55,498 bases of DNA, from IMG/VR virus record IMGVR_UViG_3300025889_000149, positions 1 through 55,498 of that record; one strand, given 5' to 3'. Shown here piece after piece: positions 12,145 to 36,084 of this stretch; the stretch's first letter is position 1, and the number at the start of each line of letters is the position of its first letter. The position numbers and the translations under genes are program-made. The stretch comes from a virus (Duplodnaviria; Caudoviricetes). Below the pieces are notes generated by a model. It saw only the letters and a list, made by a program, of their open reading frames with translations. It ran no database searches and had not been told where the DNA came from.

Positions 12145-12282
12145 TTAATCAGAACATTTCTGAATACAATCTTTGATTATACTCAGTCTGTACTGATTAA
12201 CATCTTGTTCTTTCTCTAATCTTGCTAACACTTTCTTAAAATCTTTCAAGTGTGCTTCTCTGTCTGACTTGTTTGAATACAT
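12145..12282 (-). CDS. 45-aa helical microprotein coupled to radA (not in ORF track)
   Basis: TAATG overlap with radA stop; followed by oligo(T). Confidence 0.5.
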   Translation of the reverse strand: MYSNKSDREAHLKDFKKVLARLEKEQDVNQYRLSIIKDCIQKCSD

Positions 12283-13289
12283 TAATCTTCTACGTTGTCT
12301 ATGCCTTTCTCATTTAATATGTATTCGGCATCTGCCATAGCATATTCTGGACTGTCTACCATTCTTGCTATTCTTTTCTTACCTGATTTCTTAAAGTATA
12401 TTCTATGTGTACTTGCATGACCTACAACATTACCCCCAATAGGTTTTATTGGATCTCCAAACATAGTAGCAGGGTCAGTTTGTACTTGGTTAGTAAAGAT
12501 AACTGTGCACTTGAAGTAATAAGTAATGTTCTTCAAGTGTGTCATTAATCTTTTGATTTGATTCTGTCTATCTGCTAGAGTACCCCTACCCAAATACTCT
12601 TCTCTGAACTGTCCAATAGCACCGTCAATGATAACAAGTCTAGGCTTGAAATCAATCATAGTCTTTGATAAATTATTGACAGTACCCATTAACAACTCTG
12701 TGTTTGGTGTGTAATAATACTTGATTCTTTCAAGTTTTTCCTTAGCATCTTCTTTATCTTCAGCATAACCTCTAGCCTTTAGTATTTCTAATATTCTAGC
12801 AGGCTTGAATGTATCTTCACAATCAATCCAAATAACATTCATGTCTTGACTGATTGCTTCTACTGTTAATGAGTTACAGAATTGTGTCTTACCACTACCG
12901 AATTCTCCATAGACTTCGTATGTAGCTTCAGGTTTAACACCACCATCCATAAGATTATCTACATCAGTACACTTTGTTCCAAGTGTAGGATAATTTTCTT
13001 GATACTCTAATAATTCCATAGTTCCCATGTCTGATTTTCTAATGTAACCATTATCTTCTAACAATTTTTGTGCATTGAATGACCATTGGTCTGCTTTCTC
13101 TCTACCTACACCAGTGATCTCTGCTATCTCAGCAGATCCTCTGACACAAATATCTAATATAGTATTAACACCAAATGCATTAAGTTTCTTTTCAGTTACA
13201 GCACCAACACCATCTAATTGTGATACTGCTAGTTCTATTTCAACTGGTTCACTTGTTTCTTGAGTTTCAATTTCTTCTACTTCAGACAT
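12282..13289 (-). CDS. radA: Archaeal RadA recombinase
   Basis: N-terminal HhH (LDGVG), GEFGSGKTQ, IDCEDTF, FREEYLGRGTLADRQ, KPIGGNVVGHAST, ARMVDSP. Confidence 0.95.
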   Translation of the reverse strand: MSEVEEIETQETSEPVEIELAVSQLDGVGAVTEKKLNAFGVNTILDICVRGSAEIAEITGVGREKADQWSFNAQKLLEDNGYIRKSDMGTMELLEYQENYPTLGTKCTDVDNLMDGGVKPEATYEVYGEFGSGKTQFCNSLTVEAISQDMNVIWIDCEDTFKPARILEILKARGYAEDKEDAKEKLERIKYYYTPNTELLMGTVNNLSKTMIDFKPRLVIIDGAIGQFREEYLGRGTLADRQNQIKRLMTHLKNITYYFKCTVIFTNQVQTDPATMFGDPIKPIGGNVVGHASTHRIYFKKSGKKRIARMVDSPEYAMADAEYILNEKGIDNVED

Positions 13290-13313: not shown

Positions 13314-15263
13314 TTATGCCTTTCGGTATGTTCCATCGTTGTTTAATCTTACATGATTAAACCTTTCCCAATTACCAAATAGTTTCTTGGCTTCCATTGG
13401 TTCGTAACCATACTCAACTAACTTTCTCATAAAGTCTGTGAGGTTTACTTTACCATCCTCATTCTCACAATCAGACCATGCTCTCTCTGCTGTCTGTTGT
13501 TTTGTTTCCTTATTAGATGTACCTAGAACTGTTTGAATAGATCCAGATGATATACTTAGATTGAATGAACCATACATTGATTCAATCAACTCTTTAACTC
13601 TCATCACATCAGTAACCTCAACAAAGTCTTTTAACATTAACTTAGCATGTGCATAAGATAATCTAACCAATGCTTCTAATTGTCTAGTACCAATAGGTAA
13701 CTCATCATTCTTTGACTTTGCTCTCATGTCATTATAAATTTTAATTATCTCTGCTTTGACTTCCTCTGTTAGTTTTGGATTCTGTTCTTTTGCTAGAGTC
13801 ATTAATGCTACCAACTCATTCTCTTCTAATGGTATATGTGTAGTCTTTGATACATCATCTTCAAATGAATTAATAATATGACTAGCCTTTAACATATCCT
13901 CTGTCATATTTACAGTATCTTTAATCAACCATATCAAATCAAACCTTGATAACAATGGTGCTGGAATATCTACATTATCTCTCAATGATATATCATTGTC
14001 ATAGAATCCATACTTTGGATTGGCTGATGCAAGTATTGCTGTCTTAGTAGGTAGAGTTAATACAATACCAGCCTTAGCAATACTGACTGTCTGTTGTTCC
14101 ATAGCCTCATGCATGGCACTTCTATCATCCTTATTCATCTTATCGAACTCATCAATAAATGCAAAGCCACCATTACATAATGGTAACACACCAGCTTGGG
14201 CTACAAACCTATCATTAATCTTAACAATAGCGATAGTGAGTCCAGCAGAACTTGTACCTCTTCCAGATGTGTAAATAGATTTATGCGTGATACTATTTGC
14301 ATACTTTAACAACTCAGACTTAGCCATAGATGGATCTCCTACTAGAAAAATGTTTATGTCTGACCTCTTAGTTCCCTTTACACCACCTACTAATTGCAGT
14401 AGTATAGATAACTTTATGTCTTTCATACCATATATTCTAGGTGCAAAACTACTAACAATCTTCTCAGTATATCCATTTTCTTGAGCCATCTCTCTAAACT
14501 TTTTTTCTTGCTCTACTGTTGGTCTCAAATCTTCCTCTTCCTCTAGGTTATCAAGTGCAAGTATGTCAATGTATACATCATTCTCATTCTCTTTCATGTC
14601 AATAATAGACCTGAAGATACCAGTGATTCTTTTCTTCTGACCAGTAAAAGAAGTAGATACATCATTACCATATACCTTACCTACAAATGTAACTGGAGAA
14701 CTGTGAACAGCATCCTCTAATTGTTCTTGTAATAACAATGTCTGAACATCATCAGTAACAACACTGTTACTCTGCATAATCATCTTACATCTCTTACATG
14801 ATGGGTTAGGACATGTAGGCTGTTGTATTTTCTTTTCAAAGTCACACTTAACATCTTCTTGATTAAAACATTGTGGACATACAGCAGTGCCTTGTTTCAC
14901 ATAAGTCTTTGGTGCATCAGTTGCAGATATGATACAGTCAAATGTAATAACTGTATTCTCAAAGTGAGCACCTATATCATGCATAGATATTGGCTCTCTA
15001 CCAACAAGATTAATCTGTAAATCTGCAAATGTATTTGGCACATCAATATCATCATACACTTCTTCTAAAATACCATAAATAACATGTCTTAATCTTTCCT
15101 TAAAATCTACTGGACTCAAACCAAATACCATAGAAAAATCCTCACTCTCTACATCAATATTATATACACTGTTTGGTTTTAATGCAGAAATAACCTTAGA
15201 ATATTGTGGCTTGTTTAATATCTCTCTAATCTTATCACGCATGGCAGACTCTGTGTAACTCAT
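13314..15263 (-). CDS. mcm: MCM replicative helicase
   Basis: Zn finger CPQC...C..C, GDPSMAKS, SAGLT, FIDEFDKM, HEAMEQQTVSIAKAG, LSRFDL, RQLEALVRL. Confidence 0.95.
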   Translation of the reverse strand: MSYTESAMRDKIREILNKPQYSKVISALKPNSVYNIDVESEDFSMVFGLSPVDFKERLRHVIYGILEEVYDDIDVPNTFADLQINLVGREPISMHDIGAHFENTVITFDCIISATDAPKTYVKQGTAVCPQCFNQEDVKCDFEKKIQQPTCPNPSCKRCKMIMQSNSVVTDDVQTLLLQEQLEDAVHSSPVTFVGKVYGNDVSTSFTGQKKRITGIFRSIIDMKENENDVYIDILALDNLEEEEDLRPTVEQEKKFREMAQENGYTEKIVSSFAPRIYGMKDIKLSILLQLVGGVKGTKRSDINIFLVGDPSMAKSELLKYANSITHKSIYTSGRGTSSAGLTIAIVKINDRFVAQAGVLPLCNGGFAFIDEFDKMNKDDRSAMHEAMEQQTVSIAKAGIVLTLPTKTAILASANPKYGFYDNDISLRDNVDIPAPLLSRFDLIWLIKDTVNMTEDMLKASHIINSFEDDVSKTTHIPLEENELVALMTLAKEQNPKLTEEVKAEIIKIYNDMRAKSKNDELPIGTRQLEALVRLSYAHAKLMLKDFVEVTDVMRVKELIESMYGSFNLSISSGSIQTVLGTSNKETKQQTAERAWSDCENEDGKVNLTDFMRKLVEYGYEPMEAKKLFGNWERFNHVRLNNDGTYRKA

Positions 15264-15607: not shown

Positions 15608-15910
15608 TTATGTTGATTCATCCACAAGTTTTATTAACTTCTTAAGATTTTCTGGCTTAAATTTCTTCAACATCTCAACTGACTGATGATGTTTCTTACA
15701 CAATAATGCAAACCTATTTGGGTCTGATTTTATTACTGGTAGAACATATTCATTATAGGAATACGAATCTTTGAAATCAGAATATATTTTATCACTATTT
15801 AAATATCTTTTATGATGAAAGACAAACCACTTACCAAATTTTTTACCACATACATAACACTTACCGTCAAACTGTGGTAAAAATGCTACCTCTCTCTTCA
15901 TTTTATCCAT
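15608..15910 (-). CDS. HNH-like zinc nuclease
   Basis: CYVC...FHH...LLCKKHH; likely start 15910. Confidence 0.6.
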   Translation of the reverse strand: MDKMKREVAFLPQFDGKCYVCGKKFGKWFVFHHKRYLNSDKIYSDFKDSYSYNEYVLPVIKSDPNRFALLCKKHHQSVEMLKKFKPENLKKLIKLVDEST

Positions 15911-15960
15911 TATTTCTTTCTTCACGATGTGTTTAAATACTAGGAAATTAATATATTTAT

Positions 15961-16050
15961 ATGAAAAAATGTCCAAGATGTAAAAGTAATTTTGATGGAT
16001 TCTGGCAAGAATGTGATCGATGTATTCAAACTTTTTATCCTGAAACTTAA
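15961..16050 (+). CDS. 29-aa CxxC-CxxC microprotein (not in ORF track)
   Basis: MKKCPRC...ECDRC; TTTAAATA at 15932. Confidence 0.55.
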   Translation: MKKCPRCKSNFDGFWQECDRCIQTFYPET

Positions 16051-16091
16051 ATTAAAAAAACTATAAATTGTAGGCTGTTATAGATACAAAT

Positions 16092-16493
16092 GTGACTGAA
16101 ATTATAGGTAGAGGAGAGAAAACAGCATTAGCAATACTTAAAGAAATTTATGGAGAGAGAGATGATATTGAATACTTTACTCAATACAAATTTAAGGACT
16201 TATTAAAAGGAGAATGGGTAGATACAGTAACTGAGAGGCAAGAAAAAGAAACAATAGATATTGTAGTTAAAACACCAAGAAAAACAATAGCAGTAAGAAT
16301 ACAAGACCCACATCACAATGGTAGAATCACTGAAATGAGAGATAAAGTTCAACGTAAAACTTTGGAGTGGAATGAGGTGGCTGTTGTTGATTTATGGTTT
16401 CATGAGTCTCCAGAACTGTTCAAGGAAAAACTTAATGATCAAAGTAGAAATGAAGTTGTAACTATATTAAAATCATTAGGTGTTTATCCGTAG
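16092..16493 (+). CDS. Vsr/DUF559-like endonuclease
   Basis: GE..A..IL, TQY, IDIVV, AVRIQDPHH, RDKVQR..LE...VVDLW. Confidence 0.6.
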   Translation: MTEIIGRGEKTALAILKEIYGERDDIEYFTQYKFKDLLKGEWVDTVTERQEKETIDIVVKTPRKTIAVRIQDPHHNGRITEMRDKVQRKTLEWNEVAVVDLWFHESPELFKEKLNDQSRNEVVTILKSLGVYP

Positions 16494-17780: not shown

Positions 17781-18050
17781 TCAATACCAATTAATTCCCT
17801 TACAGTCATAACATGTAGTGCCAGCAAGAACTTCAACATTAGACATATATTTCTTGCATGTATCACACTCTGTATATTGTGGATTATGTTTAGTAGAATT
17901 TTCATTAACAATCTCAACTGCACGAAGATATTTCTTAAGTCTATCAACATCGTATTCTATTAATTCTTCTTTCTTTGATACGGACATTGGAATCCATATC
18001 CTTTCCTCGATGTTTATAATTCTTTTTACTATCTTATCTTTTTCATTCAT
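17781..18050 (-). CDS. Hypothetical protein with C-terminal CxxC-CxxC
   Basis: ECDTC...TCYDC; ATGA coupling to vWA gene. Confidence 0.6.
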   Translation of the reverse strand: MNEKDKIVKRIINIEERIWIPMSVSKKEELIEYDVDRLKKYLRAVEIVNENSTKHNPQYTECDTCKKYMSNVEVLAGTTCYDCKGINWY

Positions 18051-19705
18051 CGTGTGTTTCTGATTACTAATTTTCTAAACTCTTTAATAATCTTTTCTTC
18101 AGCACCATTCATGTCTGAGAACTCAAAGTATCTACTCTTACCGAATATCTTATTCATCAATACTCTTGGACTGTATCTAAGTATTCTCCTAGATGTTAAC
18201 ATGATACACATCACATGAGGATTATTTCGTCTCACTTTAAGTAATGATTTCTTTGTCAATGATACCATCTGCATATCACTAAGTTTGTATTTCTTACTTC
18301 TATATTCTGGCTTACCATCTGTCAACATGATTAAGAGTTTCTTTCTACCTTTCATCTTGTTTAACTGCATTGAAGAGTATTCAAGTGCTAAATGTGTAGG
18401 TGTTAAACCATATCCAGTTTTGAATGTAATGTATTTACAATCTTCGTATGACTTTATCTCTGTAATACCTACATCTCCCATACTATTAGACCCCCATACA
18501 TTAGCCCTTAACTCAATACCTTTTTGGTTACTCAATCCTTTGAATAAACTTGCGACAAAGTTTCTGGCTTTCTCCATGTTGTTATCAAAGTTAACCATAG
18601 ATCCAGACCCATCAATAGATATGACAATAGATACACCCTTATCTATCTTATCAGTTAACATTACCTCAGTCCTATCCTTACCATTTACTTTGTTATCTAT
18701 GTATTGTTCTACATCTACTTCATAGCCATCATGACTATGTTTAACAGTCTTCAACTCATGTATCTTTGTTAGGAATTTTCTGATTCCAATTTCAATCTTT
18801 GGATTTACTGTGACAGTATCTTTACCTCTGCGTATCATGGTAAACTTTCTGTTAAGTTGTGGTTTTTCACTGTTCGCTTTCTCTGCTATTGTCTCTGCTA
18901 TATTATCTATAACATCGTTATACTCTGATCTGTCTTCTTTTAATGATTCTTCTAGTTCTATTTCCTCAGTCAATTCTTCTTTTTTCTCTATGTCTTTAAT
19001 CATTTCCTCATCAATATCTGATAACGGAGATGATGAACTACTATTAATATCAGGTATATCAGGTCTAGGCTGTCCTCTCTTCTCTACATTTCTATTCTTA
19101 TACCATTCTTCAATGTATGGTTTCAAATAGTTTAATATCTTGACAGTACCAAACTTACCAGTACCAACAACAATACCCAATGCATAAGAATATACATCTG
19201 CATATTCGCTAGTTACCAAGTCGTCTCTGTAAAATCTCTGTCTTAAAAGTATACCATCAGGTTGATTAGTGTCATCTATTCTCATTCCCTTTCCTAGTTT
19301 TTTTCTAGTAGAAACAAATCTAGATTCATTTGCTCTCCATATATCAGCTACAAAAGCCTCAATACGTTGATCTTCAATTATATTAAAACAAGACCAGTAT
19401 ACACCTTTAAGGAATGGATCTTCAGTCCACTTTGCTATCATATCTTTTACTGGTGTGAATAAAGATTCCCCAAGTATGTGACCACACTCATGTGATAACG
19501 CTGTTATACGTGATATGTTTTTCTGAGCAGGGTTTGATATGTTCATTTGATAAGAGTTAATACCATCTCTAGTACCATTCCATGCGACAAAATTATCTCC
19601 ACTAAAGTTTGTAAGGTTAACCTTACAATCCTTAGCGTACTCTACAATGTCTACAACATTTCTAAAGTATTCACTGTCTGATAATATCTCTCTGTTACGA
19701 GCCAT
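18047..19705 (-). CDS. vWA-domain protein with N-terminal HExxH region (CobT-like partner of MoxR ATPase)
   Basis: HECGH, FNIIEDQRIE, acidic linker, MIDAS DGSGS, TP, MLTDG. Confidence 0.85.
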   Translation of the reverse strand: MARNREILSDSEYFRNVVDIVEYAKDCKVNLTNFSGDNFVAWNGTRDGINSYQMNISNPAQKNISRITALSHECGHILGESLFTPVKDMIAKWTEDPFLKGVYWSCFNIIEDQRIEAFVADIWRANESRFVSTRKKLGKGMRIDDTNQPDGILLRQRFYRDDLVTSEYADVYSYALGIVVGTGKFGTVKILNYLKPYIEEWYKNRNVEKRGQPRPDIPDINSSSSSPLSDIDEEMIKDIEKKEELTEEIELEESLKEDRSEYNDVIDNIAETIAEKANSEKPQLNRKFTMIRRGKDTVTVNPKIEIGIRKFLTKIHELKTVKHSHDGYEVDVEQYIDNKVNGKDRTEVMLTDKIDKGVSIVISIDGSGSMVNFDNNMEKARNFVASLFKGLSNQKGIELRANVWGSNSMGDVGITEIKSYEDCKYITFKTGYGLTPTHLALEYSSMQLNKMKGRKKLLIMLTDGKPEYRSKKYKLSDMQMVSLTKKSLLKVRRNNPHVMCIMLTSRRILRYSPRVLMNKIFGKSRYFEFSDMNGAEEKIIKEFRKLVIRNTR

Positions 19706-20614
19706 CTATTTCACATTAGTTCCAAATATCTCATTGATTCTAGCAGTGATTAGCTCACGCTCTTCAACCTCAGAGTATTTTGCGATGATTACTTGCTTCA
19801 AGGAATATGTCAGTGCCATTAATGGTTCTAACTCTTTGTGTAACATTCTGTAATACTCACAGAATTGGTCTATGTCTCTAGGAGATAATACATACTCAAC
19901 ATCGCCTTTCATTCTCAATGCGTGAGTTTCCTGAGCCAGTGTTAACAATGGTCTCTTTATTGTATTCTCTTCAACACCATCCCAATCGATGATATTCTCT
20001 AGTTGTTTACTTGTTGGGTATGTAAGTATGTCTCCAATCATTCTACTTCTCAAGTCTTCTGTCAATGAGTTTACACCTGAGTATGTAATAGGATTCATAG
20101 TACCAACTATAACAAGTCTACATCCCTCATTAAGTTTGTAGATTTTATTATTTGCTACTACTGATCTTCTCTTATCGAATGGTCTGTTCAATAACTTCAT
20201 TATGTCATGCTGATTAGCATTTAGTTCATCAAGGTATAGAACACATACACCATACTTATTTGCAACTTCATAGGAAATAGGTAATACACCTAACTCAAAG
20301 AATGATCCATCATCATTTATCTGAGTCCTACCCAGTAAGTCTCCCTTGTTAGTGTTTGAACTACAAGAAAACTCTACCAATGGATAGCCTAACTTTCTGC
20401 ATAGAGTATAGACTAACAGTGTTTTACCAACACCCTTGTCTCCCTCTATCAAGTATGGCATAGTACCATATTTGAATGTGAGCTCGAGTAACTTCATCTC
20501 GTCTCCAACTGGAATGTACTCTCCCCAATTAGCCAAGTTCTTTGGATCGTATTGGTCAAAGTCTATCTCTGCGTTTGGTACGCAGATTTTTTTATTTTTG
20601 TTTACATCAGTCAT
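19706..20614 (-). CDS. MoxR/CbbQ/CobS-type AAA+ ATPase
   Basis: GDKGVGKT, LYLDELN, GTMNP..Y.G, LRSR, SPR; adjacent to vWA gene; likely start ATG 20614. Confidence 0.9.
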   Translation of the reverse strand: MTDVNKNKKICVPNAEIDFDQYDPKNLANWGEYIPVGDEMKLLELTFKYGTMPYLIEGDKGVGKTLLVYTLCRKLGYPLVEFSCSSNTNKGDLLGRTQINDDGSFFELGVLPISYEVANKYGVCVLYLDELNANQHDIMKLLNRPFDKRRSVVANNKIYKLNEGCRLVIVGTMNPITYSGVNSLTEDLRSRMIGDILTYPTSKQLENIIDWDGVEENTIKRPLLTLAQETHALRMKGDVEYVLSPRDIDQFCEYYRMLHKELEPLMALTYSLKQVIIAKYSEVEERELITARINEIFGTNVK

Positions 20615-20619
20615 TATAA

Positions 20620-20922
20620 TTATTCCTCGTGATAATCCCACCAGCTTCCCTCAGCCCATCCCATACATTCACACTGTTGACGTATACCATTATGGTCTGT
20701 ATATGCAACTGCATCACATGCATGAGCAACTTCTCCATTAGCATCATATTCAATCTGATTATATTCAAAATCTCCCTCTTCATTTAAAGGTTTACTTGTG
20801 TCACGAATTTCTAATTCTTTATCAGTTTCGTAATGCATATCCCAAGTGTGTCCACATCTGGCACACTTTGGATTATAACCATCACACATACTGTCTGTTA
20901 CACCACATGGTAGACTACTCAT
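20620..20922 (-). CDS. Zinc-binding hypothetical protein
   Basis: CARCGH...H...C...CEC, same ligand layout as microprotein 1563..1709. Confidence 0.6.
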   Translation of the reverse strand: MSSLPCGVTDSMCDGYNPKCARCGHTWDMHYETDKELEIRDTSKPLNEEGDFEYNQIEYDANGEVAHACDAVAYTDHNGIRQQCECMGWAEGSWWDYHEE

Positions 20923-21044
20923 CTTGATCTGTTCCTCTGTATATTCATACAGTTATCAATACCATTTAGTTCACACTCAGCACACTTACGTGTTTCTTTG
21001 AAGTAATGCTCGAATGACTGTCGGCATGTTCTACATTTTGACAT
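20919..21044 (-). CDS. 41-aa CxxC-CxxC microprotein (not in ORF track)
   Basis: MSKCRTC...KCAEC; translationally coupled on both sides. Confidence 0.6.
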   Translation of the reverse strand: MSKCRTCRQSFEHYFKETRKCAECELNGIDNCMNIQRNRSR

Positions 21045-21187
21045 CAATCTAAATCGTACCTCATTTCCATATAGCTTGGTTCTGGACTGTATACTTCTGC
21101 ATTAGTTTCCTCTGCATATTCATCGAGCCAGTCCTTAAAAAAACGCACGATGAAATTATTCCAAATGAATAACTTTACATGATTCAT
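21044..21187 (-). CDS. 47-aa microprotein, first gene after promoter B1 (not in ORF track)
   Basis: ATG 22 nt from the TATA of promoter B1; TGATG coupling to next gene. Confidence 0.6.
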   Translation of the reverse strand: MNHVKLFIWNNFIVRFFKDWLDEYAEETNAEVYSPEPSYMEMRYDLD

Positions 21188-21238
21188 ATCTACTAATAGT
21201 CGTTAAGATATATAAACATAGATTTGAAGAAAAATAAT

Positions 21239-21391
21239 AAAGTAGGTAGGCGTGCCTGTTCTTCAATGAGCCAGAGCCCATTCTGAAAACGCCTCGTTCG
21301 TAAGTTATGTATCTCTGTATTTTTTTTTTGGACTCATGCGTATGACCTGAGCCACTCTCGTCTTTTCGAGCACCTTGAGATCCTACTCTAT
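21239..21391 (-). ncRNA. ~150-nt structured ncRNA candidate expressed from promoter B2
   Basis: No ORF; stems AGAGUAGG/CCUACUUU, AUCUC/GAGAU, CUCG/CGAG, GGCUCA/UGAGUC, AGGCGU/ACGCCU, AAUGGGC/GCUCAUU; internal A10; ends in U-rich tract. Confidence 0.65.
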
Positions 21392-21458
21392 ACCATTACT
21401 ATTGTTCTTATGATATTTAAACATATATTTGAAGCTTATGAATGATAGATTCATTCTG

Positions 21459-21574
21459 TTTTTTACTATTTTTTACTCTGATAATCAATGCATATAACGC
21501 TGTTGTAAAAACTATTTTTTTACTATTTTTTTACTATTTTTTTACTTTTTTTTACACTGGTTTTTTATTTTTTT
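21459..21574. repeat. T-rich tract with imperfect tandem TTTTTTACT(A) repeats
   Basis: About six T(5-8)AC(T) units; non-coding; adjoins motif C and repeat A1. Confidence 0.75.
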
Positions 21575-21658
21575 CACTCGTGTACAACTCATGCACACAT
21601 GCATGCGTGACATCGACATTCTTATATACCCCTATCTGTTCCAGTCACGCAAAAAAAA

Positions 21659-22126
21659 TTAAAGCCAGACTGGTATGGATCTGTTAGTCCACTTGTGTAA
21701 GTGCTGTTTGTTTGTACGATAGTAAGTACGATAAGATTCTATAACGTCGTTATTAACTTTACATTCGTCTGGCATTGCACGAGCCCATCGAGTCAAACCA
21801 ATGTCAGGTATGTCAGGCTCAGGTAATGACATGACAACATCATAAGACTTGTGATTGTTGTATTTGTTATATCTATACTTGTATTCATTATTCAATGCAA
21901 TTACCAAGTCACGTAACCAACGCCAGTTAGATAAAGAATCACGTAACCATCTATTACATGGATGGTTAACGTGTGACTTCTTGTATGGTATAACACCGTT
22001 ATAGCCAGTCTCATGTAAACAAGTGCAAAGCATTTGAGCAGACTCTAGTATCATCTTAACCACATGTCTGTCACAATGTGCACGAGCACATGCATCTATG
22101 TCATTATCTAAAACAAAAATGTTCAT
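21659..22126 (-). CDS. Pyrimidine-dimer DNA glycosylase/endonuclease V-like family protein
   Basis: MNIFVLD...HCDRHVVKMILESAQML...NHP...EY..RY...H. Confidence 0.75.
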   Translation of the reverse strand: MNIFVLDNDIDACARAHCDRHVVKMILESAQMLCTCLHETGYNGVIPYKKSHVNHPCNRWLRDSLSNWRWLRDLVIALNNEYKYRYNKYNNHKSYDVVMSLPEPDIPDIGLTRWARAMPDECKVNNDVIESYRTYYRTNKQHLHKWTNRSIPVWL

Positions 22127-22437
22127 AGTAATTGATACGCTTTTCTCATACTTAAGCCTAACTTTGAAGCGTATCTAATATACTCTGATACATTAGAGAG
22201 ACTATGCCCTTGCTCTAACATGAGCCAAATCACACGAGCTAAGTATCTATTGTTGACCCCCGAAGTCTTCAATACTTTCTCAGTGCTTACTCTAGTAAAA
22301 CTAGAGGGAAGAGCAAGGACATGCTCTGAAGTTATGTAACCTAGCACATGAGCCAGAGCTAGGTAAGGACACTGATAACTGTATACTATTGTATCAGCCT
22401 CATCCAGTGCATTAGTGATATATTCTATGTCATTCAT
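22123..22437 (-). CDS. Hypothetical protein
   Basis: Translationally coupled ORF in the B3 operon. Confidence 0.6.
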   Translation of the reverse strand: MNDIEYITNALDEADTIVYSYQCPYLALAHVLGYITSEHVLALPSSFTRVSTEKVLKTSGVNNRYLARVIWLMLEQGHSLSNVSEYIRYASKLGLSMRKAYQLL

Positions 22438-24875: not shown

Positions 24876-25261
24876 GAAGTAGTAAACGTCGTTATCATAT
24901 ATAAGTCGATATTTGAAGACCATTACACATACCAATTAGCCATACAATAGACAATGATAAATACCCCTATCTCCCCTATAAACCCCTCTAACCTCAATAT
25001 TGTTGTATAAACGTCTCATTCGATTCGTAAGGTAGAGCCTCATACAGCACGCACACGCACATAAAAAGAATTTTTTTTTATTTTCGTAATACAAACGCCA
25101 TCCCATCATAACTCTCGCGTACAACAGTTAATCTTATATACCCCTATTCGTCGTAGACATTCTTATATACCCCTACTTGTTCATAGTTAATCTTATAAAC
25201 CCCTACCTAATTCGACAATCTTATATAGCCCTACTTTGAGAACTATATAAAAAAAATGGGA

Positions 25262-25507
25262 TTAATAATCCCAATCGCCCGATGTACATTCAGGCTCGAT
25301 ACATGATTCTACGCCTGCATAATAGTTACCCTCTATACTTTCATACCATGCATGCTTTAAAGAACCCGAAAACTTTTCAGTCTCTTTAAGCATCATGATA
25401 TGATCTCTAAGGACTAACTTAGCAGAGATCATAGTATCGCACTTTTCGTTATAGTCAGGTAAACAGCCATGAATACCAGCCATAACGTGATAATGAAGCT
25501 TGCTCAT
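25262..25507 (-). CDS. Cassette microprotein (81 aa)
   Basis: Promoter B4 23 nt upstream; oligo(T) and four A repeats downstream. Confidence 0.75.
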   Translation of the reverse strand: MSKLHYHVMAGIHGCLPDYNEKCDTMISAKLVLRDHIMMLKETEKFSGSLKHAWYESIEGNYYAGVESCIEPECTSGDWDY

Positions 25508-25653
25508 TGTAATATATTATTTTTTTTCCTATATAAGACTTTATTTGAAGACCCCCTTAATCGTGTACAGACGTGTACGACCAACAATCTTATATACCCC
25601 TACCTGAATCAACAATCTTATATACCCCTATCTTTCCCCTGTTATAAAAAAAA

Positions 25654-25878
25654 TCAGTAGCTTCTATCGAAGCCATAATAATCGAGAACTCTATTAATCA
25701 TCTTACTAGATGTCATAGATGCTCGATTAATTGATAATACTTTCTTAGAACTTGTATCAAGTTCTAGAATAGTAGTACCATAGTGAATGACTTTAACAAA
25801 TTCGCCAGACTTTAACACAACTGAAGCCTTAACGCATTTGATGTCACTCACTGTAGTGAGGTTATCGAGAACGCTCAT
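25654..25878 (-). CDS. Cassette microprotein (74 aa)
   Basis: Promoter B5; HYGTTI...SMTSSKMINR; oligo(T) and two A repeats downstream. Confidence 0.75.
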   Translation of the reverse strand: MSVLDNLTTVSDIKCVKASVVLKSGEFVKVIHYGTTILELDTSSKKVLSINRASMTSSKMINRVLDYYGFDRSY

Positions 25879-25924
25879 AGTATACTAATAGTTAACATGA
25901 TATATAAACATAGATTTGAAGATT

Positions 25925-25975
25925 TTGGGTACTCAGCCTGACCTATCGAAGTCAGCGATAATGCCTTTTCCCTTT
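25925..25975 (-). ncRNA. ~50-nt structured RNA or leader after promoter B6
   Basis: No ATG; GGG/CCC and GGC/GCU stems around an AAAA/GAGUA internal loop, plus hairpin CUGACUU-CGAU-AGGUCAG. Confidence 0.5.
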
Positions 25976-26075
25976 GATTACTAATAGTTAACATAATATA
26001 TAAGCATTACTTTGAAGCCATGCTACCACCAATCTTATATACCCCTACTATTACCACGCCAAAAAAAAGAGAGGG

Positions 26076-26219
26076 TCACACAAACTCAGGAACGCCCTGT
26101 GTTGTGTTTCTACCCTGCACTCTGGCTTTAGAATGAAACTCTGTATGTCTTTTAACCCTTAAAGAAAAATCGGGGTCTGTCTCATCGAAGTGCATTGAGC
26201 ACAAAGAACAATTAGCCAT
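26076..26219 (-). CDS. 47-aa C2H2-like cassette microprotein (not in ORF track)
   Basis: MANCSLC...RHTEFH; promoter B7 22 nt upstream. Confidence 0.7.
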   Translation of the reverse strand: MANCSLCSMHFDETDPDFSLRVKRHTEFHSKARVQGRNTTQGVPEFV

Positions 26220-26316
26220 AAGTAACATTGGTCGTTATGATATATAAATATAGATATGAAGCCCTATCGTATCATCATTCTTAAATACCCCTACTATCCC
26301 TAATAATAAAAAAGAG

Positions 26317-26547
26317 TTAGAAGATCATCTCTTCATGGACTTGGATTTTAGACTTTGGATTTGTATGCATGATGTAATCGATGTATAGTTGTTTCAAAGT
26401 ATGATAAACCAAATAGATGCTCTTTTGGACATCATCATGGCTCATGTTATCTGTTGGAACAAACTTACCATCATCCATTCTACGACTTATCATCTTTAAC
26501 AAATCGCCACACGAATCTAATTCACGTTTTGAAACGGATGTTTCCAT
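26317..26547 (-). CDS. Cassette microprotein (76 aa)
   Basis: Promoter B8 23 nt upstream; oligo(T) and A repeat downstream. Confidence 0.75.
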   Translation of the reverse strand: METSVSKRELDSCGDLLKMISRRMDDGKFVPTDNMSHDDVQKSIYLVYHTLKQLYIDYIMHTNPKSKIQVHEEMIF

Positions 26548-26666
26548 ACTATACTAATAGTCCTCATACTATATAAACACATATTTGAAGCACTCGCATA
26601 CACATTACTAGCACCAATCTTATATACCCCTACATGTGAGTTACATTATAAAAAAAATGTTGAGGA

Positions 26667-26729
26667 TTACTCCTCACTATATGTGCCATCATAAGGATTT
26701 GGCTCGTAGTCTTCGTACATATCATCCAT
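26667..26729 (-). CDS. 20-aa acidic peptide MDDMYEDYEPNPYDGTYSEE (not in ORF track)
   Basis: ATG 22 nt from promoter B9; stop lies in hairpin TGAGGA-GTAA-TCCTCA followed by T8. Confidence 0.6.
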   Translation of the reverse strand: MDDMYEDYEPNPYDGTYSEE

Positions 26730-26894
26730 AATATACCATAGTCGTTATAATATATAAACACAGATATGAAGCATTTTTTTTATTTACACACACATATCAG
26801 CCCTAACAGTCGCGTACAGACGACAATCTTAAATACCCCTACTTGAATCAACAATCTTAAATACCCCTACTAGTGCTCTTTAATAAAAAAAGGC

Positions 26895-27056
26895 TTAAGA
26901 GTAATAGCCAGTATTAACACCGTCTATCTCTTTCTGTTCCATTCTTTCCATTCGTCTTTCTATTCTAGCGATAAGTATGCAACGCATTTTATCATCCAAG
27001 TCTTTATCAAAACTTATCTGACTTATTCGCTGACAGTCTAATTCGTATTGACTCAT
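26895..27056 (-). CDS. 53-aa cassette microprotein (not in ORF track)
   Basis: MSQYELDCQR...GYYS; promoter B10 22 nt upstream. Confidence 0.7.
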   Translation of the reverse strand: MSQYELDCQRISQISFDKDLDDKMRCILIARIERRMERMEQKEIDGVNTGYYS

Positions 27057-27169
27057 AACTATCTATACTCATCATAATATTTAAACTAATATTTGAAGCC
27101 CTATCAACCCCATCGCTCGTGTACAATCGGCAATCTTATATACCCCTACCTTAGTATATAAAAAAAGGG

Positions 27170-27388
27170 TTAGACGTTTAAAGATCGCCTATAACCCATG
27201 TAGTTTAGGGCTTTGTCCATCTTTTCCCAAAAGTAACCACTGTTCACAAAAGAGTAGTCATTGGGATGGTTTTGCATTTTTGCAATCTCCAAAACACAAC
27301 AAAGTAACTTAGTTGCCACATTGGCATCTAAGTCAGATGACAATCTGTTTGCTTCGGAGATCAGTCCATGAATTGTGTGTTGATCCAT
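27170..27388 (-). CDS. Cassette microprotein (72 aa)
   Basis: Promoter B11 22 nt upstream; oligo(T) and A repeat downstream. Confidence 0.75.
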   Translation of the reverse strand: MDQHTIHGLISEANRLSSDLDANVATKLLCCVLEIAKMQNHPNDYSFVNSGYFWEKMDKALNYMGYRRSLNV

Positions 27389-27539
27389 ACATAAACTGCT
27401 TCGTTATGATTAATAAACATAGATTTGAAGAAACATAGTCATTCTTATATACCCCTACCTAGATTAGTCATTCTTAAATACCCCTACTCTACCAATGCTT
27501 CAAATATCGACTTATATACTATAACGACTAATGATCTTC

Positions 27540-31804: not shown

Positions 31805-31821
31805 GTGTGATAAGTGTAAAG

Positions 31822-32271
31822 ATGGCAGAGAAACTGGAAATTAATCATGGTGGAACAGATGTTGGTAAGAAATTACTAGAAAACCATCAAAAAAACGAGT
31901 ATACTAGAGTAAATAACTACAAAGAGGCAGTATGTTTAAACTGTCTAAAGACAGATAGAGCCATCGCAACAATCGCTACAATATGTGGAGAATGTGCTGG
32001 TAAACGTGGTAGAGAGCCATTATTAGCAGTAGTATCTAGAAAATTCTACGGTCTTTGCCTGTTTTGTGGAGAACATAGATTCCATTTAGAAGAGATTAAT
32101 GCTAGATTCTGTACCTCATGTCATGGTAGAATAGCCAAGATTACAAGGGAATATAACAAGAAAGGTGGTACTATGGGTACTGATCCATTCTGGAAACACC
32201 TCAAAAAGAAATGGGGTAAAGATTGGGAAGGCAAATTTAAAGAGGGTTGGAATACTAAAGCACGAGATTGA
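31822..32271 (+). CDS. Multi-CxxC zinc-binding protein in head module
   Basis: Four CxxC pairs; likely start ATG 31822. Confidence 0.65.
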   Translation: MAEKLEINHGGTDVGKKLLENHQKNEYTRVNNYKEAVCLNCLKTDRAIATIATICGECAGKRGREPLLAVVSRKFYGLCLFCGEHRFHLEEINARFCTSCHGRIAKITREYNKKGGTMGTDPFWKHLKKKWGKDWEGKFKEGWNTKARD

Positions 32272-32683
32272 TTCTGTCTCTAGTAAAATCGTAATACCTG
32301 TGATTATAATCTATTTTCTTTTTACCTTTTTCCAAGTTACCATAAAACCTATCAACTCTAGTTTCATAGTCAGCCTTTCTGCATACTCTAGGATTGAAAA
32401 ACAATTTATTCTTCTTTACATCATATACTATTTTACCATATTTTACTAATTCTGCCCTATCTTTTAATTCATCTGGAATTACACCATTCCTACAATGAAC
32501 TATTGTCTTTGATACATTTGCTTTTTCTTTTTGGTCATTTGTGTTAGTTACCACTATAACTTTAAGGTTAGGCACTATGTAAATATCAATAACCTGACAA
32601 TGAAACATCAAATCTTGAGTATATTGACCATATACCTTATTATATTCATCAATACTCTCATAAACATAGAACGATGTAGCCAT
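32255..32683 (-). CDS. Hypothetical protein (likely start 32683)
   Basis: The longer 5' extension in the ORF track is antisense to the membrane gene at 32718. Confidence 0.6.
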   Translation of the reverse strand: MATSFYVYESIDEYNKVYGQYTQDLMFHCQVIDIYIVPNLKVIVVTNTNDQKEKANVSKTIVHCRNGVIPDELKDRAELVKYGKIVYDVKKNKLFFNPRVCRKADYETRVDRFYGNLEKGKKKIDYNHRYYDFTRDRINLVL

Positions 32684-33612: not shown

Positions 33613-36084
33613 ATGACTGACGAGTTGTTTTTCAGCAAACTAGTTACCAAATCACTACATCCAGTTCATGGTAGCGATAGATTCTTTGAGGGCTATCTGA
33701 CCGTAGAGGTTAAGGATAAACAGGGCGAAATAACAATCGTTGATGAACTCATTAAGGTACTGCCTATTTGGATGGACAGAGGAGCACCAATTACCGATAC
33801 TCATAGTAATCGAGTAATAGGCAAAGGTATCAATTACCAACAAACCGTCTATAAGGCAGTTGATGGAGAGGAATATCCAGCAATTAAAATCATAGGAAAA
33901 ATCCACAATGACTATGAGTTGGATAATGAAATATGGAAAAGAATTACAAGTGGAGAATACAAAGGTCTATCATTTGGTGGTGCAACCAAAAGCAGTAGAA
34001 CACCATTTAGAATGAAAGACGGATCATTAGCATATCAATTAAAAGATTTAGAACATTATGAGGTCGCAGTATGTAAAGACCCTGCTGTACCATTAGCATT
34101 AATCACTGATTATAATCCAGTAGCAAAAGCACTTACTGATAATTATACAATGCACTCTGAGGGTAAAATGCTCATCAGATGTAGTAACTTTGGCTGTATG
34201 GTAGAGAAATCACATGGAGATGCATTTGATAATGGAGAAAAAGCAAGGGCAGTTATTGAAAGAGAACATGAATTAAAAGGAGAGAAACCTGATGAAGATG
34301 AAAAGAAAATACATGAAAAAGTTATAGAAGAAAAAGAAGAAGAGGGTAGAGATAAAGACGTTGGATCTGACGTAGATGAGGGTAAAGTTACCAAAGATGC
34401 AGATCATTCAACAAGATTACATGGTACTAGAGGATTAGGATCTGATCCAGAAGCACAACATAAAGAATCAGAACAAGTAACTGTGCAAGAAGAAGATAAA
34501 GAAGATAAGAATAAAGCATGTTGGGAAGATTATAGACAAGATGGTTTCAAAAAAATTGGAGATAGAACAGTTCCTAACTGTGTAAAGAAAGCAGAATATC
34601 AAGGAGAATTATTAAATAAAGAAGTTAAAGACGGAGTATTTCAAGGTAACATTTCAAATGCACAGTTTGCGGGTAACAATAAAGAAGAATCATTTCAAAA
34701 AGGAGAACGTAAAAGACAATATATGAATACAGACGATGCAGTTAAATTAATAGCTGAGCCAGCAAATGAATCGTATGTTGCAAGACGAGCAGAAGAACTT
34801 AAACAACCTAATGCAAATGCAAAAATGACAAACATCACTGTTGATCCAGAAGGAAAAATTAGACACATAGATGGTAGACATGAATTACATGCGATGCATA
34901 GAGCAGGAGTTAAAACAGTTCCAATACAAGTTCGTGAAGATAGTAGAAGAGAAGATCCTGAAAGATTATCAAATATAGATTTAAACGATCCTAATTTAAT
35001 AGGAGAAGAAAAATGGAGAAAGAAAGCAGAATATCAAGGAGAAGAAGTAGAACTAAATAAACCAATGAGAGATGATGGAGATAAGAAATTCAAAGTATAT
35101 GTAGAAGACCCATCAAGTGGAAAAGTTGTAATTGTAAGATTTGGAGATCCAAATATGGAAATTAAACGTGATGATCCTGAAAGAAGAGCATCATTTAGAG
35201 CAAGACATGATTGTGATAATGCTAAAGATATTACTACACCTCAATACTGGTCATGTAAAATGTGGGAAAAAGAATCAACAGTAACAGAGAATACCAACAA
35301 GGCTGATGATAAAAAAGAACATGTAGACCTATCAGATCATGAAAAATATCCAACATTCCAAAGTAAGGTAGATGCAATAGTGGCAAATCAAGGAATATCA
35401 GAAGAATCAGCAAAAAAGATAGTAGGTTCTAAGATGAAATCACATAAAAAAGCGATAGATTCATATAAAAATGCCACAAACTTTATAAATACACTTATTA
35501 AAGATTTAAATAACAACATGGTCGAAGAATCCGAATCTAAACATGAATCTGCTTCCCACGAGGAAGAAGAGAAAAAGGAAGACAAGGAAGAATCCAAAGA
35601 AAAGGTTGAAAAATCATTCCAAGAAGCAATTAAATCTAACTTCGAAGCAGTTACTGAAGTAATTCAGTCACTCGCAGAAACACAAAAGAGCGTTCAAGCA
35701 ACACTCAAAAGTGTAGATGATAGACTTAAAGCACTGGAGACACCAACAGACTTACCTTTAAAGCCAGCTACAACTGACTCTGAAGATATTGGTGCTGATG
35801 TCAAAGTTCCAGCAGAACCATACGTTTCTAACTCAGAACAAGCTGAATTAGATGCAGATGGTGCTGAACATGGAAAAGATCAATCAAGCTTATCTATGCA
35901 AGAAAAACACTTCACTACTGAAACACCAAGACCATCTGCTTCTGTTAATCCAATTAACAAAAGTGCAAAAGATTTCAACTTGGTATTGAAAGATGCTAGA
36001 GAATCTGGCGATCTATCAGCAGTAGCAAGGGATATTCTCGCTGGAAAATATACACCCGACTTAAAAAGTGAGGACTGGTACTAA
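33613..36084 (+). CDS. Prohead protease-scaffold polyprotein with inserted ParB-like and other domains
   Basis: GYLTVEVKDKQGE, DTHSN, GLSFGG, EVAVC..PA (HK97-type protease); IDGRHELHAM ParB-like segment; coiled-coil C-terminus; directly upstream of MCP. Confidence 0.85.
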   Translation: MTDELFFSKLVTKSLHPVHGSDRFFEGYLTVEVKDKQGEITIVDELIKVLPIWMDRGAPITDTHSNRVIGKGINYQQTVYKAVDGEEYPAIKIIGKIHNDYELDNEIWKRITSGEYKGLSFGGATKSSRTPFRMKDGSLAYQLKDLEHYEVAVCKDPAVPLALITDYNPVAKALTDNYTMHSEGKMLIRCSNFGCMVEKSHGDAFDNGEKARAVIEREHELKGEKPDEDEKKIHEKVIEEKEEEGRDKDVGSDVDEGKVTKDADHSTRLHGTRGLGSDPEAQHKESEQVTVQEEDKEDKNKACWEDYRQDGFKKIGDRTVPNCVKKAEYQGELLNKEVKDGVFQGNISNAQFAGNNKEESFQKGERKRQYMNTDDAVKLIAEPANESYVARRAEELKQPNANAKMTNITVDPEGKIRHIDGRHELHAMHRAGVKTVPIQVREDSRREDPERLSNIDLNDPNLIGEEKWRKKAEYQGEEVELNKPMRDDGDKKFKVYVEDPSSGKVVIVRFGDPNMEIKRDDPERRASFRARHDCDNAKDITTPQYWSCKMWEKESTVTENTNKADDKKEHVDLSDHEKYPTFQSKVDAIVANQGISEESAKKIVGSKMKSHKKAIDSYKNATNFINTLIKDLNNNMVEESESKHESASHEEEEKKEDKEESKEKVEKSFQEAIKSNFEAVTEVIQSLAETQKSVQATLKSVDDRLKALETPTDLPLKPATTDSEDIGADVKVPAEPYVSNSEQAELDADGAEHGKDQSSLSMQEKHFTTETPRPSASVNPINKSAKDFNLVLKDARESGDLSAVARDILAGKYTPDLKSEDWY
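34584..35043 (+). repeat. 25-bp exact direct repeat (34584-34608 and 35019-35043) flanking the ParB-like domain
   Basis: AAAGAAAGCAGAATATCAAGGAGAA twice, 435 bp (145 codons) apart. Confidence 0.9.

Follow-up and report, generated by a model that had tools for sequence, protein, structure and literature searches.

The window analysed here, meaning the whole stretch of 55,498 bases, is a complete IMG/VR record of a tailed virus (IMGVR_UViG_3300025889_000149; rated 89% complete, 34% G+C). The element in question is a putative gene for a small structured RNA, which lies on the minus strand between an open reading frame (ORF) of 155 amino acids (aa; 21659-22126) and one of 47 aa (21044-21187), in a region from 12.3 to 24.9 kilobases (kb) where all genes run on that strand. 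A sequence-only reading of this DNA had proposed a multi-stem RNA of about 150 nucleotides (nt) at 21239-21391, driven by a promoter called B2, containing an internal tract of ten adenines, richer in G+C than its surroundings and with no nearby ATG other than one followed by GTA TAG. These features hold: the G+C content is 0.45 in the RNA stretch as compared with 0.305 in the 300 + 300 nt flanks and 0.34 in the whole window, the A10 tract is present, and the ATG GTA TAG, at 21396-21388, spans two codons only and opens no ORF. The RNA is 82% identical to its nearest relative; the corresponding values are 43-47% for the intergenic DNA on its flanks and about 60% for the coding ends next to it.

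The minimum-energy fold of the minus strand from 21391 to 21239 (153 nt) has an energy of -38.3 kcal/mol and z = -2.37, with 4 of 200 shuffled sequences folding as well; on the plus strand the same stretch gives z = -0.41, and 59 of 200 shuffles fold equally well. The minus-strand fold consists of a closing stem, a junction with two hairpins and the A tract, and a long 3' arm, which is the arrangement that had been drawn by eye. In the terms used below, the RNA is a three-way junction made up of the closing stem P1a, of P1b, which leads to a 5' domain with P2, P2b and an A-rich linker, and of a 3' domain with P3, P3b and P4, whose internal loops and bulge hardly vary (Table 1).

Table 1. Positions of the RNA, its structural elements and the neighbouring signals in the window
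Feature	Position	Strand	Description
RNA gene	21230..21391	minus	predicted transcript of ~155-160 nt, from start at 21392/21391 to the T5 run; both ends predicted
P1a, 5' strand (AUAGAGUAGG)	21382..21391	minus	pairs with 21246-21237, joining the 5' and 3' ends
P1b, 5' strand (AUCUC)	21377..21381	minus	pairs with GAGAU at 21315-21311, followed by invariant ACA at 21310-21308
P2 hairpin	21357..21370	minus	stem of 4 base pairs, A-rich loop of 6 nt, [AG]A[AU][AU][AG]A
P2b hairpin	21330..21354	minus	length and sequence variable among relatives
A10 tract	21320..21329	minus	single-stranded linker from P2b to the 3' strand of P1b
Conserved 3' domain	21247..21300	minus	single-stranded GAACGA, P3, P3b, P4 and 5-nt bulge
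P3	21294-21289 with 21253-21248	minus	3' domain
P3b	21287-21285 with 21261-21259	minus	3' domain
P4 hairpin	21282-21276 with 21271-21265	minus	3' domain
Bulge CAGGC, 5 nt	21258-21254	minus	3' domain
T-rich tract (TTATTATTTTT)	21230..21240	minus	immediately past the closing stem; likely termination signal
Promoter motif B, copy B2 (CTTCAAAT-N5-TTTAAATA)	21414..21434	minus	TATA-like octamer at 21421-21414
Next motif B	21209..21229	minus	ATG 21 nt past the octamer opens the 47-aa ORF, 21187..21044
Tandem 11-nt A-tract repeats, 3-4 copies	21511..21553	plus	upstream of promoter B2; repeat family D11
Motif A	21615..21641	plus	reads TAGGGGTATATAAGAATG on the minus strand; just past the T8 run; repeat families D1, D2 and D4 (11 copies in D4)
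T8 run	21658-21651	minus	terminator of the 155-aa gene

The evidence that carries this structure is compensatory change among relatives, and it is unusually clean. In an alignment of 13 full-length RNAs that share the architecture of the window (alignment A2), 351 of 351 cells are paired in P1a, P2, P3, P3b and P4, and 13 of the 27 pairs have changed on both sides (68 cells); slid controls are 33-51% paired, and the covariation score is reached by none of 500 shuffles. The closing stem extends to 10 base pairs (bp) in the window. Its seven core pairs are formed in all 13 RNAs, five of them having changed on both sides, and its nine sequence versions are all fully complementary, the sequence being free apart from two G-C pairs. 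P1b (5 bp; counted by script, as the MAFFT alignment A2 misplaces its 3' strand) is likewise paired in 13 of 13, in the versions AUCUC/GAGAU, AACCC/GGGUU, AGCCC/GGGCU, AGCUC/GAGCU and GGCUC/GAGCU, always with ACA next; the last of these (loci L104 and L108) starts with a G-U pair and is a variant of AGCUC/GAGCU. P2 stands between an invariant G and an invariant A, is paired in every one of the 13 and has changed on both sides at three of its four pairs, and the AAUGUG ahead of it consists of conserved unpaired bases. P2b differs in length by amounts not divisible by three, which speaks against a coding reading.

For the 3' domain, the comparison can be extended to 17 distinct sequences (alignment A3), in which all 272 cells of P3, P3b and P4 are paired and 5 of the 16 pairs have changed on both sides, with slid controls pairing at 37-44%. 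The invariance of P3 carries no weight in this count, because the search pattern fixed P3. Between P3b and P4 lies a 2x3 internal loop (AG/GAA). One G-U pair of P4 is invariant in 17 of 17 sequences, and U-G variants occur at two further pairs, all of them on the minus strand. Since each such pair is a mismatch on the opposite strand, the conserved G-U pairs fix the minus strand, the strand that the sequence-only reading had favoured on the same grounds. Taken together, the findings demonstrate that the minus strand encodes a conserved RNA structure.

The relatives were found in several steps. A DNA search of isolated phages with the 551-nt locus gave no match, and the 155-aa neighbour gene led to related viral contigs, two of which carry an 81%-identical 3' arm at a different site. 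A 17-mer from this arm hit 20 viral loci, 6 of them real homologues and the others, 14 in number, due to chance; a looser gapped pattern over viral contigs returned the same six loci and nothing new. A bipartite pattern of 22 bases then picked out 28 loci in metagenomes and 3 in representative genomes of prokaryotes. With a covariance model of the 3' domain (R1; its E-values are rough, the calibration having been shortened), 34 loci score at 59-92 bits, and the chance loci, which include the metagenome locus L115 and all three cellular-genome loci, score at most 24 bits or do not match. The 34 loci include two second copies of viral contigs and, together with the window, amount to 33 contigs. 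They hold 18 distinct 3' domains, 17 found through the pattern and one (L238) through the model only. The exact bipartite core is absent from the representatives of 185,579 prokaryote species, where the only three pattern matches lie in GC-rich bacterial DNA.

All members of the family have in common the short helix P1b followed by ACA, a linker that sometimes carries an extra hairpin, the single-stranded GAACGA (UAACGA in L238) and the 3' domain. The 5' domains, on the other hand, are of at least five unrelated kinds (type 1, type 2/2b, type 3, type 4 and L238), and the full-length relatives range from about 150 to 240 nt. Type 1 comprises the window, L093 and L124. The linker is A-rich throughout types 1, 2 and 2b (e.g. 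AAGAAAAnAAUAA). The 5' domain of type 3 has its own covarying three-way junction, with a closing stem not evident, and type 4 carries about 100 nt of extra structured sequence upstream. Two smaller observations belong here. In type 2 RNAs, a motif like (G/A)AACGAG is repeated in the loop of the extra hairpin. In seven type 3 loci (L116, L119, L121, L123, L128, L129 and L136), the AUG of P4 opens a frame into the downstream GGACT-type gene, giving 148 aa as against 106 aa; this frame, common to all seven, crosses a T-run and the gene's own TATA box and is probably due to chance.

The same data bear on whether a functional RNA exists at all. The interval could instead be a decayed gene behind a surviving promoter, an element acting at the DNA level, or a copy of a host gene kept for integration, and in line with this the ATG GTA TAG stands roughly where genes start at the other copies of the promoter, and the 3' domain is unusually uniform. 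The stem covariation is nevertheless perfect over 13-17 variants, the G-U pairs are strand-specific, and the element is the best-conserved segment of its neighbourhood. Furthermore, the core is missing from the prokaryote genome scan described above, on which ground an origin from a host gene or attachment site was rejected, and a Pfam scan of 36 window ORFs returned no integrase family. We consider the absence of a functional RNA highly improbable.

The RNA matches no described family. Rfam 15 (4227 models), run over the whole window at gathering scores, gave no match; at E <= 10 on 21100-21700 it gave three chance-level matches (8-18 bits, with cut-offs of 50-55) and no plausible homologue, and at E <= 1 on seven relatives one chance match, which lies away from the RNA. 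ARAGORN found no tRNA or tmRNA gene in the window, a full-text literature search for core strings of the RNA gave no match, and among the papers listed by searches on non-coding RNAs of archaeal viruses none, judged by the listings, describes it. We rate it as a new RNA family, in keeping with the earlier remark that it matched no family recognised by eye.

Comparison with known classes, whose features and consensus motifs are given from general knowledge, shows partial likenesses. Y RNAs (YrlA-type, bound by Ro60/Rsr) have a similar size of about 100-200 nt, a long end-to-end closing stem, a U-rich tail and a modular body, and they can be virus-encoded; a gene for a protein with a vWA domain is also close by in the window. 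However, no Rfam Y RNA matches, the bulged helix that binds Ro was not seen by eye, the vWA protein close by carries an HExxH domain and gives no match to TROVE in Pfam, and most relatives with the vWA protein lack the RNA. The packaging RNA (pRNA) of phi29 is also virus-encoded, about 120-170 nt long and made from an early promoter, with an end-to-end helix, a three-way junction and two arms, but again no Rfam model matches, the host domain differs, and sister viruses that have the same portal and terminase lack the present RNA. Like GOLLD, ROOL, HEARO and similar RNAs, the family is known from sequence only, folds into a complex covarying structure, comes from viral or environmental DNA and lacks an assigned function. 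It differs from them in its much smaller size (150-240 nt), its probable archaeal hosts, its absence from Rfam 15 and its modularity, one near-constant 3' domain being set on several unrelated 5' domains. RNAs that phages use in counter-defence (RNA anti-CRISPRs, pseudo-ToxI, replacement tRNAs) resemble it in being accessory, patchy in distribution, located in early regions and trans-acting, as the present RNA would be; it differs in having no CRISPR-repeat-like or tandem-repeat structure and no tRNA fold. Phage tRNAs can replace cleaved host tRNAs, and we know of no RNA counter-defence element in archaeal viruses. With regard to guide RNAs, the invariant ACA past P1b is present, and C/D boxes were not seen by eye. 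GAAGAAC resembles one strand of a K-turn, but its G and A covary as members of Watson-Crick pairs (C-G to U-A; U-A to A-U or C-G), which speaks against a K-turn reading.

Conserved unpaired bases inside covarying helices are typical of ribozymes and riboswitches, and here GAACGA, the CAGGC bulge, the AG/GAA loop and AAUGUG are all conserved though unpaired, within a complex multi-junction fold. The family might thus be a new class of ribozyme or aptamer, with the invariant junction and bulge as active site or binding pocket. Weighing on the other side, no Rfam ribozyme or riboswitch appeared at E <= 10 for the locus or E <= 1 for the seven relatives, no hammerhead, twister or similar core was seen by eye, and the conservation is in part a bias of the search. 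In addition, the RNA is a stand-alone unit with changing neighbours and hence has no obvious gene to control. We regard a catalytic or ligand-sensing RNA as unlikely.

The signals around the RNA are those of a separate transcription unit. The pattern CTTCAWA-N7-TTAWWTA, counted with up to one mismatch, has 13 matches in the window, where 1.1 are expected, and a count of 13 is reached in none of 100 shuffles. Twelve of these class-B copies are on the minus strand, between 21.2 and 27.4 kb, and in ten of the twelve an ATG 21-22 nt past the octamer opens an ORF, with a length of 47-395 aa in nine cases and of just 20 aa at the copy at 26751. The fixed position of the ATG suggests leaderless mRNAs. 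Spacing of this kind between TATA element and ATG is the geometry of archaeal TATA promoters that make leaderless mRNAs, and we infer that the class-B motif is such a promoter. The two exceptions are a copy at 25997-26017, which has no ATG, and the copy ahead of the RNA (B2), whose sole ATG, at +17, is that of the two-codon ATG GTA TAG. At B2 the +21/22 position is base 21392/21391, the octamer standing 21-22 nt upstream of the RNA. The predicted transcript would begin and end exactly at the closing stem, because AUAGAGUAGG at 21392/21391 pairs with CCUACUUUAU (21246-21237), after which the T5 run follows at 21234-21230. We read the T-rich tract as an archaeal oligo-T terminator. The proposal that B2 drives the RNA is thus strengthened, B2 being a copy of a recurrent motif whose predicted start falls on the first paired base. 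As for the proposed extent of 21239-21391, the start stands, and the 3' end is better placed at the T5 run, 21234-21230, than at 21239.

Other members of the family show a similar layout. A TATA-like box lies 23-30 nt ahead of P1a in the window, L093, L122, L124 and L126, and most members have a T-rich tract past P1a. An archaeal transcription unit is expected to have a TATA element some 22-27 nt ahead of its start and to close with a T-run, and the locus, with its predicted ends, agrees with this. A scan for bacterial sigma-70 promoters and terminators gave nothing relevant at the locus, as expected for an archaeal system. The motif TTGTACAC near the RNA is not enriched in the window (3 matches, 3.2 expected).

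In five type 2 loci (L110, L112, L117, L125 and L134), the closing stem overlaps the stop codon of a conserved ORF of 71-78 aa. This would suit a cis-acting leader or element of the 3' untranslated region (UTR) of an adjacent gene, such as a riboswitch, an attenuator or an mRNA stabiliser, since the type 2 RNA starts at that stop without a TATA box of its own, and the roughly 100 nt of additional upstream structure in type 4 could be accommodated in the same way. In the window, by contrast, a T5 run and a separate class-B promoter stand between the RNA and the next ORF; this second motif, with its ATG at 21 nt, suggests that the downstream gene has a promoter of its own. The flanking genes also differ from type to type, and neither the cobalamin riboswitch model nor others matched. 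The cobalamin riboswitch had been considered because cobS/cobT-like genes are found near the RNA, which lies upstream or downstream of them, or divergent from them, depending on the genome. The chance that the RNA is such a cis-acting element seems slim to us.

R1 was run over 47 related virus records, of which one carries the RNA, and over a second set of 26 records, with one strong match and three weak ones below 16 bits. Twelve further records were fetched: ten of 57-65 kb that are 91-100% complete, G036 (the first 60 kb of 64.7 kb) and G048, a 22-kb partial record. Except for G036, these records and the window form one virus family, because about 30 gene families are shared. Trees of the MCM helicase, portal, terminase and vWA protein agree in their groupings. 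In the clade of the window, G074, G012 and G048, every member has the RNA, and the sisters G013 and G016 do not; in a second clade G075 has it, and G018 and G020 do not; and a third group (G019, G025 and G026) is without it. The carriers therefore fall in two separate clades, each with non-carrier sisters. Profiles of the whole RNA run with nhmmer found no copy in the eight fetched non-carriers, and the covariance model together with nhmmer found none in seven genomes with homologous portal, terminase and MCM. Because only some of these closely related viruses of about 60 kb have the RNA, it is, judged by its distribution, an accessory gene.

The position of the RNA also changes from genome to genome. 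In the window and in L093 its place is downstream of the 155-aa gene. G012 has it upstream of a 411-aa gene, type 3 loci and G048 have it between the cobT module and the GGACT-type gene, and in type 2 loci it is divergent from cobS. These patterns bear on a role in replication or packaging, either as a component of a ring at the portal, like the pRNA of phi29, or as a primer or origin transcript by the AT-rich repeats. The RNA is virus-encoded with its own predicted promoter, has a helix and three-way junction reminiscent of pRNA, and lies 40-270 nt from the A-tract repeats and motif A, all of which would suit such a role. But the RNA cannot be essential to the portal, terminase, MCM or RadA machinery, because sister viruses with homologues of these proteins are without it, and to this come its shifting position, the lack of any Rfam match, and loops of P2 and P4 that are not complementary (judged by eye only). 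An essential replication or packaging RNA is in our view a poor candidate, with a probability as small as that of the cis-acting element.

The 3' domains of types 1 and 3 are nearly identical, while the 5' domains are unrelated and the carriers belong to different MCM and portal clades; near-identity across separate clades suggests either exchange of the module or very strong constraint. The 3' domain alone (21243-21298) also occurs on DNA contigs of runs X12 and X8, with unrelated flanks and 5 differences in about 50-56 nt. One such contig, from a seawater run, has a depth of 77, whereas contigs of this virus have about 5, which indicates that the module is carried by other, more abundant viruses of the same waters. 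The viruses that carry the RNA come from seawater, estuary and lake metagenomes.

Among the neighbouring genes, the pair that encodes a MoxR-type AAA+ ATPase (19706-20641(-)) and a vWA protein (18047-19705(-)), both identified with Pfam, deserves separate attention. A paper on archaeal tailed viruses (PMC8651126) calls such pairs CobS/CobT-like and describes them as widespread in tailed viruses. In an alignment of nine homologues, the CobT-like vWA protein has an invariant HExxH and N..EDQRIE in its N-terminal part and a DGSGSM MIDAS motif, and it is always paired with the ATPase. Some vWA proteins, such as Ro60, bind small RNAs with paired ends. Identity of the 552-aa vWA protein with Ro60 was rejected: at E <= 1 it matched neither TROVE in Pfam nor any sequence in the PDB, and it has the HExxH and EDQRIE motifs.

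The RNA could still be a partner or substrate of this pair in a virus-encoded RNA-protein machine, and linkage is frequent: of 34 loci, 22 have the vWA gene and 18 the ATPase gene within 4 kb of the RNA, in three arrangements, and the RNA of G048 again lies just past the cobT module. Against this, all 11 related fetched genomes keep cobS and cobT, and seven of these are without the RNA. Around 37 loci with CobT-like genes, R1 finds a strong match within 7 kb in three, all of them known carriers, and a match of 13.7 bits (E 0.7) in one more, so that 33 have none that is strong. The RNA of G012 is about 8 kb from cobT, and the partial contig L126 has no ORF that clusters with cobS or cobT within 3.8 kb upstream or 1.3 kb downstream of the RNA. 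The N-terminal domain of the vWA protein, moreover, has the invariant HExxH and EDQRIE, and the protein gave no TROVE match in Pfam. Linkage is expected anyway among related viruses with a shared gene order, which is the simplest explanation for it, and we hold a partnership with the CobS/CobT-like proteins to be quite unlikely.

The only protein family that tracks the RNA is a 104-aa protein (22123-22437(-)), which is present in all four complete RNA carriers and one of seven non-carriers of the family, and absent from the unrelated G036. It has an all-helical predicted model (pLDDT, the predicted local distance difference test, of 84) and a conserved CPYLAL motif, and it matches no Pfam family and no PDB fold at E <= 0.001.

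The virus itself probably infects archaea. Pfam identifies in the window two genes of archaeal type, for an MCM helicase at 13314-15263(-) with E 2e-76 and for a Rad51/RadA recombinase at 12282-13289(-) with E 7e-53, together with a large terminase and an RNase H, and gives a weak match for the portal. The only isolated viruses matched by the MCM and portal proteins are tailed viruses of archaea (haloarchaea, methanogens and Thermococcus); identity is below 60% throughout and 24-32% among the matches listed, and the portal is nearest to those of haloviruses. Because these two proteins match only archaeal tailed viruses among the isolates, we read the window as such a virus. Gene lists of marine group II viruses include MCM and RadA (PMC5434244).

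The explanation that we favour, with a probability of about 0.5, is that a small structured non-coding RNA has a gene to itself here, in a tailed virus that probably infects archaea, and acts in trans as an accessory factor with the 3' domain as its working part. Transcription would begin from the class-B TATA-type promoter at 21392/21391, the first base of the closing stem, and the T-rich tract would end the transcript. The RNA would act in trans and early, in an accessory role such as host take-over or counter-defence, outside core replication and packaging. Its 3' domain would be what a conserved partner binds to, the most likely partner being a protein or RNA of the host, and the interchangeable 5' domains would tune or stabilise the molecule. 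This reading is favoured because the RNA has its own predicted promoter and terminator, a shifting position with different neighbours, and a distribution from which sisters with the same replication and packaging genes are excluded, and because small early ORFs in a cluster have the same promoter class. Conservation of unpaired bases in the 3' domain suggests that a conserved partner recognises it specifically. The earlier suggestion of a protein sponge, decoy or anti-defence RNA would fit an accessory gene with invariant unpaired bases in an early-type region.

Several observations weigh against this explanation. The near-invariance of the 3' domain is inflated, as the family was collected mainly with an exact pattern that fixes 22 bases, and L238, the one member found without it, retains P3 but reads UAACGA in the single-stranded motif and AAGCC in the bulge. 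An invariant core of this kind would be equally in place in a ribozyme or ligand-binding RNA. The promoter, start and terminator are predictions, and in type 2 loci, with no TATA box ahead of it, the RNA may arise as a 3' UTR or through mRNA processing. We identified no binding partner, target or defence system for the RNA. Co-occurrence with the 104-aa protein is weak evidence, because most carriers form one clade. With regard to the host, a search of 5.8 billion proteins for MCM relatives gave no clue, every contig with a listed length being at most 65.5 kb long and thus of viral size, and an organism label was attached to only one of 120 relatives, a metagenome-assembled genome called Acidobacteria and probably mislabelled.

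A more specific proposal, which we put forward tentatively, is that the 3' module of about 55 nt is exchanged among distant aquatic archaeal viruses and captures or mimics a highly conserved host component; the RNA would then be the first class of structured non-coding RNA reported from viruses of archaea. To our knowledge, no family of structured non-coding RNAs is on record for tailed viruses of archaea. If the proposal is true, the 3' module is an RNA effector grafted onto different 5' scaffolds and aimed at, for example, a defence, transcription or translation factor, and the RNA is the counterpart of the protein genes for anti-defence or host take-over in the same early region. A constant domain on swappable scaffolds points to a defined molecular partner. 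Once found, this partner could allow RNA-based conflict between virus and host to be seen for the first time in an archaeal system that is uncultivated, and the RNA could be used as a probe that links these viruses to their host. A search of the window for antisense sites to the single-stranded motif turned up no good site besides the RNA: it gave three matches at up to two mismatches, one of them the RNA itself, a number equalled in 4 of 100 shuffles.

A number of observations concern the surrounding non-coding DNA. Motif A, which occurs at 21615-21641 and in 24950-27500 and reads AATCTTATATACCCCTA on the plus strand, has at least 11 copies, often in tandem pairs 28 nt apart, that stand directly after T-run terminators and 15-180 nt ahead of class-B promoters; it could be a second promoter class or a binding site for a regulator. 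A repeated motif that resembles it is found in relatives (AACCTTTATATACCC in L010). The 11-nt spacing of the A-tract repeats equals one helical turn, and L093 has a matching A-rich stretch at the equivalent site; these repeats could be bent DNA or an upstream promoter element. The sole plus-strand copy of the class-B motif (27498-27518(+)) stands where small plus-strand ORFs start, from 27531 onward. At the class-B copy 26017-25997(-), which has no ATG within 40 nt, the 55 nt ahead of the next promoter form a hairpin enclosed by a GGG/CCC stem (25922-26017(-); -12.2 kcal/mol, z = -1.41, 17 of 200 shuffles as good). This interval may, on weak grounds, be a second, very small non-coding transcript. 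Gene-free gaps of 280-730 nt also occur elsewhere in the virus family (window 15910-16335; G016 35979-36409; G020 31811-32545), some of them in genomes without the RNA, and they could house an origin or other non-coding elements.

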